Part shown: piece after piece, positions 2,549-6,264 of the stretch | Layout of the letters: each line of letters begins with the position of its first letter | Position numbering within the stretch: position 1 is the first letter of the stretch | Virus record (IMG/VR): IMGVR_UViG_2681813272_000008 | Strand: one strand, 5' to 3' | Source of the DNA: a virus | Taxonomy: Duplodnaviria; Heunggongvirae; Uroviricota; Caudoviricetes | Length of the DNA stretch: 6,495 nt | Notes under the pieces: generated by a model | Databases searched by the model: none | What the model was told of the DNA's origin: nothing | Seen by the model: the letters and a program-made list of their open reading frames with translations, nothing else | Program-made: the position numbers and the translations under genes

Positions 2549-2552
2549 GTGC

Positions 2553-2582
2553 TTGACCAGACACATTGTCCGGGGCTATATT
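2553..2582 (+). promoter_or_regulatory. Candidate late promoter PR' (sigma70-like: -35 TTGACC, 18-nt spacer, -10 TATATT)
   Basis: TTGACC at 2553-2558 and TATATT at 2577-2582, beginning 5 nt after the Q stop codon. Followed about 60 nt later by an intrinsic terminator, the standard PR'/tR' layout. Not experimentally supported. Confidence 0.55.
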
Positions 2583-2643
2583 CCTCACGCGCCAGCAAAA
2601 TCTGGCGTCGGGATTGGAACCCCGGATAGAGACCGCGACAGAC

Positions 2644-2666
2644 ACACGCCGCGAGCGTGTTTTTTA
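2644..2666 (+). terminator. tR'-like intrinsic terminator
   Basis: 6-bp stem ACACGC (2644-2649) / GCGTGT (2655-2660), 5-nt loop, followed by a T-run to 2665. Would give a short PR' transcript of about 75-80 nt. Confidence 0.6.
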
Positions 2667-2793
2667 TTGTCGTATGCACGCGCACATCTGAATTATGGTG
2701 GGGCGCATGGGGGAGCTGAAAAGCTCGCCGGTCGGTTTCCCGGTAGTTCCAACCCTGTGCGTCTCACCACCCGATGATTGGAACCTGACGGTG

Positions 2794-2822
2794 TTGACAG
2801 TTTCAGGTTTGCAGTTTACATT
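2794..2822 (+). promoter_or_regulatory. Candidate sigma70 promoter (consensus -35 TTGACA, 17-nt spacer, -10 TACATT)
   Basis: TTGACA at 2794-2799 and TACATT at 2817-2822, inside a roughly 360-bp non-coding stretch upstream of the ORF6N-domain gene. A weak hairpin plus T-run at 2858-2885 lies downstream, so the link to the gene is uncertain. Confidence 0.35.
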
Positions 2823-3028
2823 TCCCCGCGGTGCTCAAAACACCTCGAAAGCGGTATCCACACCCGATAGCCATGTGGTTTTTTTGTGTCCAGAATTCTT
2901 GGTTTATGACCGGGTGTGCGGCTAATACAATACCAGCAATGGAAATACGCCCGCCGACTTTCGACGGTTTTGAGCGCCCGGTCACCCTCTCAAAAGGGGT
3001 AAATCAAAATATTCGAAAGGACATGTCT

Positions 3029-3592
3029 ATGAATCGCACGTCTATTGAAAAACTCCCGTCACTTACGCATAACCATCTTCCTGTCATGACAACAGAGCTG
3101 CTGGCTGATTTGTACGGAACAGAGCGCCAGCGTTTGACAAACAATTTCAATCGAAACAAAGAACGGTTTATAGAAGGTAAACATTTTTTCCTGATAGAAG
3201 GTGATGCGTTACGAGAGTTGAAGAACGAAAACTCTTTAAGAGTTTCTGTGAAAATTGCCCGTAACGTTCGCTCCCTCATCCTCTGGACAGAACGTGGCGC
3301 AGCCCGTCACGCCAAAATGCTCGAAACCGATCAGGCGTGGGAAGTGTTCGAAAAACTGGAAGACTGTTATTTCAACCAGAAACAGCCACCAGCGGCACAA
3401 AACACATCTATCGAAAATGATGGATGCGCATTACTGAGCCACTTCGATAAACACGGTCAGGTTGAGTTCACGGAAAAGGTACCCGCCGATGCGATGGTAT
3501 GTACTCTGGAACGGTTTAAATTTTATCTGGAGCAACACGGGTGGATCGTTGCCCGTAAAGAGCAACTGGTGGAGCGGTTGATGCGGTTTTAA
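3029..3592 (+). CDS. ORF6N-domain (KilA-N/Bro-N-related, antirepressor-like) protein, 187 aa; phage moron
   Basis: Translation TELLADLYGTERQRLTNNFNRNKERFIEGKHFFLIEGDALRELK fits the ORF6N signature as I recall it (LAeLYG...RN..RF.edf.f.L). ATG 3029 chosen because SD AAGGA (3017-3021) is 7 nt upstream; the listed 2831 start adds an implausible leader. Followed by a strong terminator. Confidence 0.6.
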   Translation: MNRTSIEKLPSLTHNHLPVMTTELLADLYGTERQRLTNNFNRNKERFIEGKHFFLIEGDALRELKNENSLRVSVKIARNVRSLILWTERGAARHAKMLETDQAWEVFEKLEDCYFNQKQPPAAQNTSIENDGCALLSHFDKHGQVEFTEKVPADAMVCTLERFKFYLEQHGWIVARKEQLVERLMRF

Positions 3593-3667
3593 AAATTTTT
3601 TCCGAAAACTTTACGATCGTAAAAAGTTGAATATCCTGTTAAGAGTGGTTACTACGCCACACAGCTT

Positions 3668-3693
3668 AAACCCGCCGATGAGCGGGTTTTTTT
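3668..3693 (+). terminator. Intrinsic terminator downstream of the ORF6N gene
   Basis: Stem CCCGC (3671-3675) / GCGGG (3682-3686), loop CGATGA, then 7 T (3687-3693); stem extendable by A-T pairs. Confidence 0.75.
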
Positions 3694-3743
3694 ATACCTG
3701 AAAAACGGCACAGGACGTTAAACGTGCTGGTGGTCAGATGAGT

Positions 3744-3772
3744 TTGCAGATGTGATGACATATGGTTATTAT
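3744..3772 (+). promoter_or_regulatory. Candidate promoter for the tRNA array (-35 TTGCAG, 17-nt spacer, -10 TATTAT)
   Basis: TTGCAG at 3744-3749 and TATTAT at 3767-3772, ending about 9 nt before the first tRNA. Weak -35; speculative. Confidence 0.3.
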
Positions 3773-3781
3773 TCTGCCTCC

Positions 3782-3858
3782 GGCCCTTTAGCTCAGTTGG
3801 TCAGAGCGAGCGACTCATAATCGCCAGGTCGCTGGTTCAAGTCCAGCAAGGGCCACCA
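3782..3858 (+). tRNA. tRNA-Ile2 (anticodon CAU, lysidine type; tRNA-Met not excluded), CCA encoded
   Basis: Cloverleaf by hand: acceptor GGCCCTT/AAGGGCC, D-arm GCTC...GAGC, anticodon loop CTCATAA, T-arm GCTGG TTCAAGT CCAGC. Closely resembles E. coli ileX/ileY as I recall them. Confidence 0.85.
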
Positions 3859-3859
3859 A

Positions 3860-3936
3860 CCACCACTAGCTCATCCGGATAGAGCATCAACCTTCTAAGT
3901 TGACGGTGCGAGGTTCGAGTCCTCGGTGGTGGGCCA
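3860..3936 (+). tRNA. tRNA-Arg (anticodon UCU, reads AGA/AGG), CCA encoded
   Basis: Acceptor CCACCAC/GTGGTGG, D-arm GCTC ATCCGGATA GAGC, anticodon stem TCAAC/GTTGA with loop CTTCTAA, T-arm CGAGG TTCGAGT CCTCG. Starts 1 nt after the CCA of the preceding tRNA. Confidence 0.85.
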
Positions 3937-3938
3937 GC

Positions 3939-4014
<76 letters not shown>

Positions 4015-4017
4015 TAT

Positions 4018-4092
<75 letters not shown>

Positions 4093-4228
4093 GCGAGATT
4101 TGAGACGAAGGTTGTTATTTGCACTGACACAATATTGTGTGGGAATGTCTGACTCCTTACCATCTCCTGTTCTGTGATGTTGTTTTGTTGCAGTTCCAGT
4201 GCTCTTTTTTCAGCACCAGAATGGTGCA

Positions 4229-5718
<1,490 letters not shown>

Positions 5719-5754
5719 TGGAGCACCTGTGTTGTTCTGAGGTGAGCATATCAC

Positions 5755-5790
5755 CTCTGTTCAGGTGGCCAAATTCAGTGTGCCACTTCA
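5755..5790 (-). repeat. IS911 left terminal inverted repeat (IRL)
   Basis: Reverse complement of 5755-5790 is TGAAGTGGCACACTGAATTTGGCCACCTGAACAGAG, ending in the IS3-family TG...CA terminus. Directly abuts the first base of repeat copy B. Confidence 0.8.
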
Positions 5791-6264
5791 TTGTCGGTCA
5801 GGTTACGTAGTGAACCTCTGGCAGGGGACTGATAATGCATCATTCTGGTGTTGTAAATATCTCTTCGGACAACTTACAAAATATTCTAAGCAAACCCCGG
5901 GAACACACTCTTAACTGCCTTGGCTGGCGGTTTTTTGTACAGCGCTCGGTATGTGTGAGCTGGAAATCAGATTTTGCATGGACTGGAATCATGCTGTTAT
6001 TTAGGGGCGAAGAACTGGCTTTTTCTTCCGCCTTCTCACCAGTAACGATTAGAAAAATAATGAAATGCCCCCCTCCGGGGAGGAGGACCGTAGAAAAAAG
6101 GACCCGCCAGCAAAAACATTGGGGATGAACAGCTTTCGCTACTCAGATTGCTGGCGGGTAAAGTTCCTCATGAATTAAGAATGCTACGCGATCTTTTTTA
6201 ATGGAAATGAAAATTATTGTCAATTAGTCGTGCGTGTTTTTTCATACAATATTGGTAAAGGTGA
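5791..6264 (+). repeat. 474-bp direct repeat, copy B (partner 4229-4702), between IS911 IRL and the holin-proximal terminator
   Basis: Same comparison as copy A. Carries the imperfect palindrome TGATAATGCATCA (5830-5842) and the opposite orientation of the 34-bp segment. Confidence 0.9.
6102..6159. repeat. Same 12-bp inverted repeats with the 34-bp inner segment in orientation B
   Basis: Left arm 6102-6113, inner segment 6114-6147 (AAACATTGGGGATGAACAGCTTTCGCTACTCAGA), right arm 6148-6159. Confidence 0.9.

Follow-up and report, generated by a model that had tools for sequence, protein, structure and literature searches.

Between the stop codon of a Q antiterminator gene and the late promoter PR', the stretch of phage DNA analysed here (the window, 6,495 nucleotides) carries about 1.06 kb (2549–3609) that are best explained as a mobile regulatory cassette, with an ORF6N antirepressor-like payload behind two tandem antisense-RNA modules of the P1 c4 and Gifsy-1 IsrK kind. 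A probability of roughly two in three is assigned to this explanation as a whole. The locus is most likely a c4/IsrK-type RNA lock on an antirepressor, a kind of device that is itself known, and its two tandem antisense-RNA switches, one of them masking the ribosome binding site, apparently prevent the expression of a prophage-inducing antirepressor. Both modules (A and B; all features described are on the + strand) lie in the 480-bp spacer between Q and the ORF6N gene, where Rfam matches above the gathering score were obtained for isrK, c4-a1b1, C4 and sRNA-Xcc1.

The ORF6N gene (3029–3592) is intact and encodes 187 residues, as an earlier note on this DNA had stated. Its ATG matches the start codons of the relatives in alignment and is preceded, 7 nt upstream, by a Shine-Dalgarno (SD) sequence (AAAGGA, 3016–3021); an extended frame of 253 residues from a GTG at 2831 was rejected, since it overlaps structured RNA and the extension is missing in the relatives. 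Pfam ORF6N (PF10543) matches residues 13–97 with an E-value of 8.8e-21 (74.4 bits against a cut-off of 27.8; profile positions 5–86 of 86). It is the sole family found: Pfam gave no match to ORF6C, KilA-N, Bro-N, P22_AR or ANT at E ≤ 0.01 and NCBIfam gave none, so that of the four profiles proposed in the earlier note (ORF6N, ORF6C, KilA-N and Bro-N) the first was recovered and the other three were not. The N-terminal ORF6N domain is followed by a disordered linker (residues 113–130) and a swappable C-terminal domain, which belongs to no Pfam family and is modelled with moderate confidence; the C-terminal 87 residues match unnamed PHROGs only. Over its full length the protein is covered by PHROG 2379 ‘anti-repressor’ (E 4e-85), and 4660 homologues were collected at E ≤ 1e-5; no homologue of solved structure was found. 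With the ORF6N protein that takes the anrP position in a Gifsy-1-like locus, itself 94.8% identical to phage Gifsy-1, it shares 49% identity.

This identity suggests that the protein is antirepressor-like and related to AnrP of Gifsy-1, the expression of which induces Gifsy-1 and raises transcription of the antQ operon (PMC4825925). Antirepressor likeness had been proposed before and agrees with the PHROG assignment; control of prophage induction, raised earlier as one possible role, would be the best-supported function, judged from the resemblance to the anrP-position protein. It seems unlikely that, with the architecture as described, the product serves instead as a regulator that binds DNA or as a factor for superinfection exclusion or defence. 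PADLOC returned only weak matches, to the candidate system PDC-S05 (E 1e-7), and the protein has no ANT, P22_AR_C or ORF6C domain, both of which would suit such a factor; against it stand the relationship to AnrP, the fusion of ORF6N to the P22 antirepressor C-domain in antB of Nil2, and the presence of the same Xcc1-type RNA leader before bona fide P22-type antirepressors.

The left flank of the cassette is a Q gene of the Q21/Q933W family (2141–2548; Pfam PF06530, E 2.7e-52), whose product shows 78–81% amino acid identity to Q of Stx1a and Stx2a phages and 82% to Q of E. coli VL40, a relative without the cassette. The earlier note had read the locus as a simple promoter-gene-terminator moron placed directly after PR'/tR', expressed as the first late gene upon Q antitermination and possibly, in the lysogen, from a promoter of its own. 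A sigma-70-like promoter (2553–2582) and a terminator (2644–2660) do follow Q immediately, and the ORF6N gene itself has another promoter-like site before it and a hairpin after it. The first pair, however, belongs to an IsrK-like small RNA and is found behind integrases and ninE in places where there is no Q, and the same initial transcribed sequence occurs behind three unrelated Q-like families. The homologue of the mapped Q933-type PR' (3610–3645) lies after the gene, beginning 18 nt past the ORF6N stop codon, with its promoter elements at 3610–3637 (TTTACG at 3610–3615, a 16-nt spacer and TATCCT at 3632–3637). The ORF6N gene is thus upstream of PR', and Q antitermination at that promoter cannot drive it. 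In VL40 the 82%-identical Q is joined straight to the PR' unit (the order being helicase, Q, PR' unit, tRNAs, holin), with no cassette between them. The simple moron placed after PR' is therefore already contradicted by the data, and we regard it as very improbable.

Neither candidate promoter revealed by eye a QBE of the Q21 type (direct 8-bp repeat), so PR' was assigned by homology to the Sp5 promoter, which has been mapped. For Q21, the QBE falls between −40 and −1 of PR' and is made up of two 8-bp subsites repeated in direct orientation (10.1101/651190); in Nil2 the repeat is visible as two copies of TGAGCAA. Positions 3610–3698 are 85% identical to the Q-proximal end sequence in Stx2a phage VT2phi_272, and the sequence is present in Sakai Sp5 too. 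The putative start of transcription at ~3644 was transferred from Sakai by a 258-nt distance calculation that uses what we take to be the coordinate offset between the Sakai assembly versions. In the Stx phage the PR' start was mapped by dRNA-seq, with a 258-nt StxS transcript (PMC7547250). The likeness to the StxS unit (Sy et al. 2020, PMC7547250) extends over the Sp5/933W-type PR', the StxS start and the first hairpin, all within 3610–3698, and a tRNA cluster with its own promoter comes next. The window differs from it in having neither the ~230-nt segment that holds tR' of Sp5 (258-nt StxS-L) nor stx genes, and in the separation of the PR' unit from Q by the 1.06-kb cassette. The promoter-proximal hairpin and U-run (3668–3696; hairpin scan match at 3668–3689) are kept immediately behind Q and PR' in relatives without the cassette and in Stx phages, and the unit 3' of the ORF6N gene varies with the Q family while the cassette does not change. 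The strong terminator previously seen downstream of the gene does exist at 3668–3689, but it belongs to the PR' unit and not to the ORF6N gene. An IS911 with a duplicated flank is located just downstream of the locus, directly before the lysis region, and the prophage is probably defective.

Two tandem antisense-RNA modules had been missed in the spacer by the earlier note. Module A starts with a PisrK-like promoter (2553–2582; TTGACC-18-TATATT, promoter scan), whose TTGAC and TATAnT elements are conserved in position behind Q21-, Q82- and DUF1133-type genes, integrases and ninE. The IsrK-like short RNA (2589–2665; Rfam isrK, RF01394, 77.5 bits, GA 50, full model) overlaps a c4-a1b1 match (2576–2628; Rfam 50.1 bits, GA 46.7), carries the loop b1, AUUGGAAC, at 2613–2620 and ends with an intrinsic terminator (2644–2660, terminator scan) and a U-run. 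It is followed by a C4-type antisense RNA (2691–2774; Rfam C4, RF01695, 71 bits, GA 45) with b' (GUUCCAA) at 2746–2752, and by the downstream target b2, also AUUGGAAC, at 2777–2784, recognized by its pairing with C4 b' across leaders. The b1:b' pairs form in 100% of cells, with double changes in 4 pairs, and the b':b2 pairs in 98.3% of cells in 17 leaders, where slid controls give 25–50%. In two other composite leaders b2 of module A is mismatched to its own C4. A small ORF of 76 aa runs from 2695 to 2925 and ends 104 nt before the ORF6N ATG; it is not conserved in the E. coli relatives, and a coupled small ORF of the orf45 type is absent here. An ATGA overlap of the small ORF with the ORF6N start in E. 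coli relatives did not survive a systematic check, which found it in Gifsy-like loci only, and translational coupling was consequently dropped for the window.

If the IsrK promoter and terminator also responded to Q, the cassette would be subject to RNA control and to Q antitermination alike, and its frequent adjacency to Q would be explained. Most loci indeed have the cassette immediately after a Q-like gene, from one of three families, and AnrP and AntQ are functionally linked in Gifsy-1 (PMC4825925). That link, however, runs through derepression of the antQ operon and not through Q at PisrK; no QBE-like 8-bp direct repeat is present in 2553–2588, and homology among cassettes behind different Q families begins only at 2566. 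Such a double role is given very little credence here.

Module B is read from a second promoter (2794–2822; TTGACA-17-TACATT, promoter scan), which is the TTGACA candidate of the earlier note, although it lies 235 nt and not 200 nt upstream of the ATG. Transcription is predicted to start at ~2830. A TTGACx −35 and a TAnAnT-like −10, the latter weaker in some loci, recur across divergent leaders 7–10 nt 5' of GGTGCTC, with unrelated spacers. The short leader or decoy RNA (2830–2885) was delimited from b1:loop covariation, stem covariation and duplex energy: a1 (CUCAAAA, 2834–2840) is a hairpin loop, b1 (UCGAAAG) stands at 2845–2851, and its 3' end consists of a hairpin (CCACA/UGUGG, 2858–2878) followed by U7 (2879–2885), the stem covarying among leaders as CCACA/UGUGG, CCGCA/UGCGG and CCGUG/UACGG. 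Next comes the sRNA-Xcc1-type RNA (2908–2991; Rfam sRNA-Xcc1, RF02221, 77.4 bits, GA 53, full model), with the loop of its hairpin 2 forming b' (CUUUCGA, 2958–2964) and with a' (UUUUGAG) at 2968–2974. The target (3004–3021) comprises a2 (UCAAAA, 3004–3009) and b2 (UCGAAAG, 3013–3019), and b2 overlaps the SD of the ORF6N gene. The CUUUCGA loop is complementary both to the upstream decoy b1 and to the UCGAAAG that overlaps the SD. Between the leader and the 3' half of the Xcc1-type RNA a duplex of −35.5 kcal/mol is calculated, against −11.6 ± 3 for shuffled sequences, and MFE folding makes the decoy:antisense duplex of module B far stronger than the antisense:target duplex. Duplex predictions between whole segments of the leader were dropped as uninformative, since long sequences pair anywhere, and were replaced by covariation counts and by short-segment duplexes compared with shuffles.

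The pairings of module B hold across the family. Loop and b2 pair in 100% of 161 cells (23 leaders) and b1 and loop in 96.9% of cells, each with double changes in five of the seven pairs; none of 500 shuffles reaches the observed value and slid controls give 31–55% (32–53% for loop and b2), figures to be read with the covarying columns having been picked after the pattern was seen and with related sequences inflating the shuffle statistics. About nine specificity types are represented among these leaders, which corresponds to few independent events. In a genome-wide scan, 51 of the 109 usable matches (Pseudomonas, Xanthomonas, Haemophilus, Desulfovibrio, Azospirillum and others) showed the triple arrangement, in which a 7-mer of the b'/a' region has an exact reverse complement both upstream and downstream; the controls gave 1 and 0. 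In distant taxa, too, b2 abuts the SD and the ATG. The gene after the Xcc1-type leader belonged to the antirepressor guild (ORF6N, Rha, Bro-N, KilA-N, P22_AR_N/C) in 18 of 20 tested cases.

The balance tips slightly towards a broader proposal, that the sRNA-Xcc1 family, instead of being a set of orphan trans-acting sRNAs, forms a second class of antisense ‘immunity’ RNAs of the c4 type, and a very widespread one, with a programmable 7-nt loop (plus a') that pairs with a decoy in a short terminated leader and with the SD of the next gene, almost always of antirepressor class; stacked here behind IsrK/C4, it would make a two-key RNA lock between Q and PR'. The mechanism appears to be undescribed in the literature searched. 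One paper points out that in APSE phages an Xcc1 RNA precedes an ORF6N gene, and proposes no mechanism. The RNA of the window matches the covariance model over its full length and shares its outer stem and both inner hairpins. The founding sRNA-Xcc1, of Xanthomonas, is integron-encoded and trans-acting according to the account cited in 10.1101/2020.03.17.996009, and was described as virulence-linked, with no defined target; here and in the 51 of 109 genomes, by contrast, two copies of the loop complement flank the RNA and an antirepressor-class gene comes next. That founding description, and a repressor sign that is drawn from analogy, would also fit an Xcc1-type RNA that activates the next gene, or acts in trans on host mRNAs, instead of repressing in cis. 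We consider this improbable: the loop covaries with two flanking sites of the same locus and, in enterics as in distant taxa, one of the two overlaps the SD of the gene that follows, a combination that is the signature of a local antisense target; moreover, pairing at an SD normally blocks initiation.

The cassette is found in many contexts. The same leader with its promoter stands behind genes of the families PF06530, PF06323 and DUF1133 and behind integrases and ninE, so that the IsrK promoter and terminator travel along into places without a Q gene; of 20 relatives scanned, essentially all have the pair of isrK and C4 ahead of ORF6N genes. Lambdoid morons are promoter-gene-terminator insertions between conserved genes. 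The cassette resembles them in being autonomous, in occurring in many genomic contexts, in its own two promoter-like sites, whose −35 and −10 elements keep their positions in divergent contexts, and in its absence from the collinear VL40; it differs from them in its elaborate RNA control and in having no terminator of its own, using instead the hairpin of the neighbouring PR' unit (3668–3689). The moron label of the earlier note thus holds for promoters and distribution and fails for the terminator. By count, promoter-like sites (4, with 2.3 ± 1.7 expected by chance) and terminator-like sites (2, with 2.1 ± 1.7 expected) are not above chance in the scans, and the case for their reality is therefore built on conservation. 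In the Nil2 record ant is annotated as ‘disrupted by a putative bacterial retrotransposon’, an interpretation we rejected: the inserted segment is an Xcc1-type leader and bears no sign of retrotransposition.

The composite leader might also be a product of recombination in a defective prophage, an inert relic that regulates nothing now; the nearby IS911 with its duplicated flank, the uncoupled small ORF and the mismatched b2 of module A in sister composite leaders could be taken this way. We hold this to be highly unlikely, given that the ORF6N ORF is identical and intact in 11 independent viral contigs (variant or truncated ORFs stand behind the same leader in 2 further contigs), and that composite leaders behind other Q types, at 80–89% identity, still have loop, b1 and b2 matched, including one (L052) in which the specificity has switched.

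The mobile antirepressor cassette is closest in order to Gifsy-1, antQ-isrK-orf45/STnc1160-anrP (Hershko-Shalev et al. 2016, PMC4825925). Shared are a Q-like gene, PisrK, a terminated IsrK, a C4-like stable RNA (STnc1160, to which the C4-type RNA here is equivalent) and an ORF6N antirepressor-like gene, and both AUGs, +107 and +119 in the transcript, are kept (2695 and 2707). The differences lie in Q, which is Q82 there and of the Q21/Q933 family here; in the 45-aa ORF overlapping the antirepressor start, essential there and absent here; in the extra ~230-nt Xcc1-type module between C4 and the gene, with its SD-masking site; and in isrJ, which is missing here, with the PR' homologue in its place. 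The immI operon of phages P1 and P7, reportedly described by Citron and Schuster in 1990, has the order c4 antisense RNA, icd and ant. As in P1/P7 c4, the antisense RNA is transcribed together with its own target and ahead of it, its a' and b' stretches match a1 and b1 on the upstream side and a2 and b2 on the downstream side, the latter at a ribosome binding site, by complementarity, the loop sets specificity (compare the heteroimmunity of P1 and P7) and the payload is an antirepressor. Unlike P1/P7, the module B RNA comes from another Rfam family, sRNA-Xcc1, outside the C4 clan, its b2 masks the SD of the antirepressor itself instead of the SD of an upstream ORF coupled to it, the leader with a1 and b1 is self-terminated like IsrK, and there are two modules in tandem. 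In the immI region of P22, ant is controlled by Mnt, Arc and sar RNA. There, too, lysogens silence an antirepressor through local control devoted to it, an antisense RNA included, and P22_AR domains stand behind Xcc1-type leaders elsewhere, but the locus here has no Mnt/Arc repressors, no sar family match and no P22_AR_N/P22_AR_C.

In the proposed mechanism the Xcc1-type RNA would pair, through its 7-nt loop and the a' stretch, with the ORF6N ribosome-binding region and block translation, so that the antirepressor stays switched off during lysogeny. Acting as a separate RNA or in cis, the short leader, being more extensively complementary to the antisense RNA, would titrate it as IsrK does and so turn ORF6N translation on; the protein would then inactivate the prophage repressor and promote induction. 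Transcription of the gene would come from the promoters of the cassette and from early-operon read-through past Q, and not from Q-modified polymerase starting at PR'. The direction of control, with the antisense RNA repressing and the decoy activating, follows by analogy from P1 c4 and Gifsy-1 IsrK, and we likewise infer any RNA processing and the target of the protein. What the analysis itself shows are the homologies, the positions, the covarying base pairs, the mobility of the cassette and the place of the PR' homologue.

Antirepressors allow prophage induction without RecA cleavage of the repressor, and through them one prophage can wake another; how they are silenced decides when toxin-carrying and other prophages fire. 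IsrK/C4-controlled ORF6N antirepressor cassettes are common mobile inserts between Q and PR' in prophages of E. coli and Shigella. An apparent PR'/tR' after Q can be an unrelated sRNA unit, which makes the annotation of late promoters by position unsafe. The sRNA-Xcc1 family, for its part, gains a concrete and testable target and mechanism: its short loop, in setting specificity, would provide a natural set of orthogonal RNA switches and is a likely basis for heteroimmunity among co-resident prophages.

The window is the end of the right operon of a lambdoid prophage. It carries genes for a DnaB-type helicase (15-1547), a small coiled-coil protein (1544-1801), RusA (1801-2172), a Q antiterminator of the Q21/Q933W family (2141-2548; PF06530, E 2.7e-52) and the ORF6N protein (3029-3592), then four tRNAs (3782-4092; anticodons CAT, TCT, TGT and TCC) and IS911 (about 4703-5788). 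Coverage by any complete E. coli genome is at most 64%. The protein cluster nearest to the ORF6N protein (99% identity) is labelled Shigella sonnei, and the identical ORF and leader occur in 11 IMG/VR contigs, with the identical leader in 2 more. The locus is of a known kind, an antirepressor gene under IsrK/C4 control, in a new arrangement, placed between Q and PR' and equipped with a second RNA module.

The earlier note had put the ORF6N gene right after PR'/tR', as a moron expressed on Q antitermination; comparison with Stx phages places PR' downstream of the gene instead. The Q of the window is 78-81% identical to those of Stx1a and Stx2a phages. In the Stx2a phage VT2phi_272 and in Sakai Sp5 the sequence TTTACG-16 nt-TATCAT overlaps the end of the Q gene, with a GC-rich hairpin and U-run 3' of it. 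Sy et al. (PMC7547250) used dRNA-seq to map the Sp5 PR' start and Term-seq to map the 3' end of StxS-L, which is 258 nt long; at that distance upstream of the second terminator, the start falls 7-8 nt 3' of TATCAT. A homologue of the Stx2a/Sp5 PR' sequence (85% identity) occupies 3610-3698 of the window, where homology to VT2phi_272/Sp5 locates TTTACG at 3610-3615, TATCCT at 3632-3637 and the hairpin at 3668-3689. The Q gene of E. coli VL40 (82% identity to the window Q) directly abuts a PR' unit 96% identical to that of the window, and the same tRNAs and a holin gene follow without an ORF6N gene.

The leader and ORF6N cassette is common to all of 60-odd related loci compared, whatever their Q type. 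The sequence 3' of the ORF6N stop is 87-94% conserved wherever Q belongs to the window's family; behind Q82-family Qs isrJ is found instead, and behind DUF1133 genes the hairpin alone is shared. The promoter and terminator at 2553-2665, previously taken for PR'/tR', are also found behind integrase genes and behind ninE in the nin region of phage Nil2. On the simplest reading, positions 2549-3609 form an insert that separates Q from PR', the supposed PR' is PisrK, the supposed tR' is the terminator of IsrK, and the terminator noted downstream of the gene is part of the PR' unit. That hairpin does exist; its strength as a terminator is uncertain, because Sp5 transcripts pass the homologous hairpin and end at a second terminator, which is missing from the window. 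The TTGACA promoter candidate was likewise found (TTGACA-17-TACATT, 2794-2822). By the shuffles of the scan itself, neither kind of site is rarer than chance, so that both need other support.

Two further features concern PR'. A palindrome (CTTTACGATCGTAAAAAG, 3609-3626) covers the -35 of the PR' homologue; it is kept in VL40 with a different centre (TTTTACGTACGTAAAA) and in Sakai as a GATC version, and could be a protein-binding site or a Q-binding element of Q933-type Qs. In E. coli RMDEC364 (locus L085, 3697-4314) a WYL-domain gene and a hypothetical gene fill the slot between Q and a PR'-like unit without the antirepressor cassette, and the junction of Q with PR' has the look of a general hot spot for insertions.

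A scan of the window with Rfam gave four matches above the gathering score in the 480-bp spacer between Q and ORF6N, namely c4-a1b1 (2576-2628), isrK (2589-2665, its 3' end being the former tR'), C4 antisense RNA (2691-2774) and sRNA-Xcc1 (2908-2991). The spacer is not a late-control region. Q, isrK, a C4-like RNA and an antirepressor-like gene follow in the same order in Gifsy-1, where transcription from the IsrK promoter gives both a terminated sRNA and, by read-through, an mRNA, the short IsrK unlocks orf45-anrP translation in trans, and AnrP leads to more antQ-operon transcription and to prophage induction (PMC4825925). A group of viral loci that combine a Q82-family Q with isrK, C4, an ORF6N gene and isrJ are 94.8% identical to Gifsy-1, and the ORF at their anrP position is an ORF6N protein (E 2.9e-19) with 49% identity to that of the window, so that the proposed link to induction control stands. 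Among the relatives, only Gifsy-like loci have the coupled ORF of 45 aa known from Gifsy-1; E. coli relatives have a small ORF of 14-36 aa, with its stop 24-95 nt before the ORF6N gene. In two Gifsy-1-like loci (L051, 3100-3174; L070, 3094-3172) isrJ, found behind Q82-family Qs only, lies between the antirepressor and lysis genes in the exact place of the window's PR' short transcript. In Q82-type prophages the PR'-tR' transcript may be IsrJ, an analogue of StxS.

The ORF6N ORF is intact, its ATG aligns with the start codon in relatives, and a Shine-Dalgarno sequence (AAAGGA) lies 7 nt 5' of it. The domain assignment was confirmed (residues 13-97; score 74.4 bits, cut-off 27.8), and the protein is widely conserved, with 4660 database matches at E<=1e-5 and an end-to-end match to PHROG 2379 'anti-repressor' (E 4e-85). 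Weak PADLOC matches to the candidate defence family PDC-S05 also cover the domain (E 1e-7 to 2e-3). An AlphaFold model built with 30 homologues as input (mean pLDDT 70) shows a confidently modelled N-terminal domain (residues 11-110), a disordered linker (113-130) and a C-terminal alpha/beta domain (pLDDT about 65). Domains shuffle in this family: the C-domain (at 90% identity) is elsewhere joined to a Rha N-domain, Nil2 antB fuses ORF6N to the P22 antirepressor C-domain, and one other locus has an ORF6N-Rha fusion. We infer an antirepressor function, which is well motivated rather than demonstrated.

In module A (PisrK, IsrK and C4), the IsrK hairpin-2 loop (b1), a C4 segment (b') and a site that adjoins C4 on its 3' side (b2) vary in concert over 17 distinct leaders, in the sets GGAAC/GUUCC, GGCGU/ACGCC, AGGAAC/GUUCCU, AGCAC/GUGCU and GGUCU/AGACC. 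Pairing holds in 100% of cells for b1:b' and 98.3% for b':b2, with two-sided changes in four pairs; slid controls gave 11-50%, and none of 500 shuffles reached the observed score. This three-site covariation follows the same logic as P1/P7 c4. The ORF6N start lies 30-50 nt 3' of module A in most relatives.

Module B is an additional stretch of some 230 nt, carried by the window and its identical copies, by five loci (80-89% identity), by Nil2 in front of antB and, as a tandem pair, by one locus. A pattern scan found it in 49 viral loci, with 23 distinct leaders. All have a TTGACx/TAnAnT-like promoter 7-10 nt 5' of GGUGCUC, followed by a hairpin with a CUCAAAA loop (a1), a 7-mer (b1), a U7 hairpin with a covarying stem, the Xcc1-type RNA, UCAAAA (a2) and the repeated 7-mer (b2), which overlaps the Shine-Dalgarno sequence of the next gene. 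In the second Xcc1-type hairpin, the 7-nt loop (b') complements b1 and b2 exactly. About nine versions of the 7-mer occur, UCGAAAG in the window and elsewhere including CAAGUAG, UCAGUAG, CAACAAG, CUCACAG, CAGAAAG, CAGAUAG, CCAGUAG and CAAACAG; a' (UUUUGAG) is complementary to a1 and a2. Loop and b2 pair in 100% of 161 cells (slid controls 32-53%), with two-sided changes in 5 of the 7 pairs, and b1 and loop in 96.9%.

As an independent test, one genome per species was scanned for another conserved part of the Xcc1-type RNA. In 51 of 109 usable matches a 7-mer of the b'/a' region has its exact reverse complement both upstream and downstream (reverse-only control 1, same-strand 0). The sources include Pseudomonas, Xanthomonas, Haemophilus, Pasteurella, Neisseria, Azospirillum and Desulfovibrio; a Shine-Dalgarno sequence and ATG adjoin b2, and the a-sites vary as well (e.g. 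UUUCUUA/UAAGAAA). Of 20 following genes tested, 18 encode ORF6N, Rha, Bro-N, KilA-N or P22_AR_N/C. In many Pseudomonas members (e.g. L140, L160, L194) the ATG after b2 opens a very short ORF (<50 aa), reminiscent of icd/orf45-type leader peptides coupled to an antirepressor gene. Tandem Xcc1-type modules with different loop specificities occur in L074 (2163-2247 and 2369-2453) and in the Oxalobacter locus L203 (two matches), so that stacking of RNA locks is recurrent. Module A b2 is mismatched in L048 and L052, and module B b1 in L125 and L131; such leaders (among L048-L052, L125 and L131) are recombinant, with one of three sites off, and look like natural 'specificity swap' intermediates.

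Regulatory steps may be proposed for these positions, homologies and covariation by analogy with P1 c4 and Gifsy-1 IsrK. The Xcc1-type RNA would pair with a2/b2 and keep the ribosome from the ORF6N start, and leader a1/b1 would sequester it, either in cis, within read-through transcripts, or in trans, as a short terminated RNA, turning translation on. The predicted duplex is much stronger with the leader (-35.5 kcal/mol; shuffles about -12) than with the target (-16.6; shuffles about -9). Module A probably sets how much PisrK and early-operon transcription reaches module B. Lying upstream of PR', the gene would not be transcribed by Q-modified polymerase from PR'; it could be transcribed from its own promoters in the lysogen and by read-through past Q in early lytic growth.

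Other parts of the window deserve mention. The coiled-coil ORF separating helicase and RusA is helical (85 aa), has a match to PHROG 2565 (unknown function) that is confined to the C-terminal end of that family, and is kept in relatives as a separate 85-aa gene. Upstream of the tRNAs, a set unlike the ileZ-argN-argO set of Stx phages, a promoter-like site (TTTGCA-18-TATTAT, 3743-3772) aligns with the Sakai region of a mapped tRNA promoter. IS911 is flanked by a 476-bp direct duplication (4227-4702 and 5789-6264; 99-100% identity). IS3-family insertions are expected to leave 3-4 bp, and the length found points to recombination involving two copies or to a join made in assembly. Inside it, a 58-bp stretch with 12-bp inverted ends (ACCCGCCAGCAA...TTGCTGGCGGGT) has opposite orientations at 4540-4597 and 6102-6159, and against three E. 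coli genomes it is inverted too, which could reflect a small invertible element or a hairpin-mediated flip.

The sRNA-Xcc1 family is not in the Rfam C4 clan, and the open literature searched holds one passing mention of its link to ORF6N, without a mechanism. The mechanism proposed here appears to be new to the literature, and module B gives the family a specific one that can be tested.
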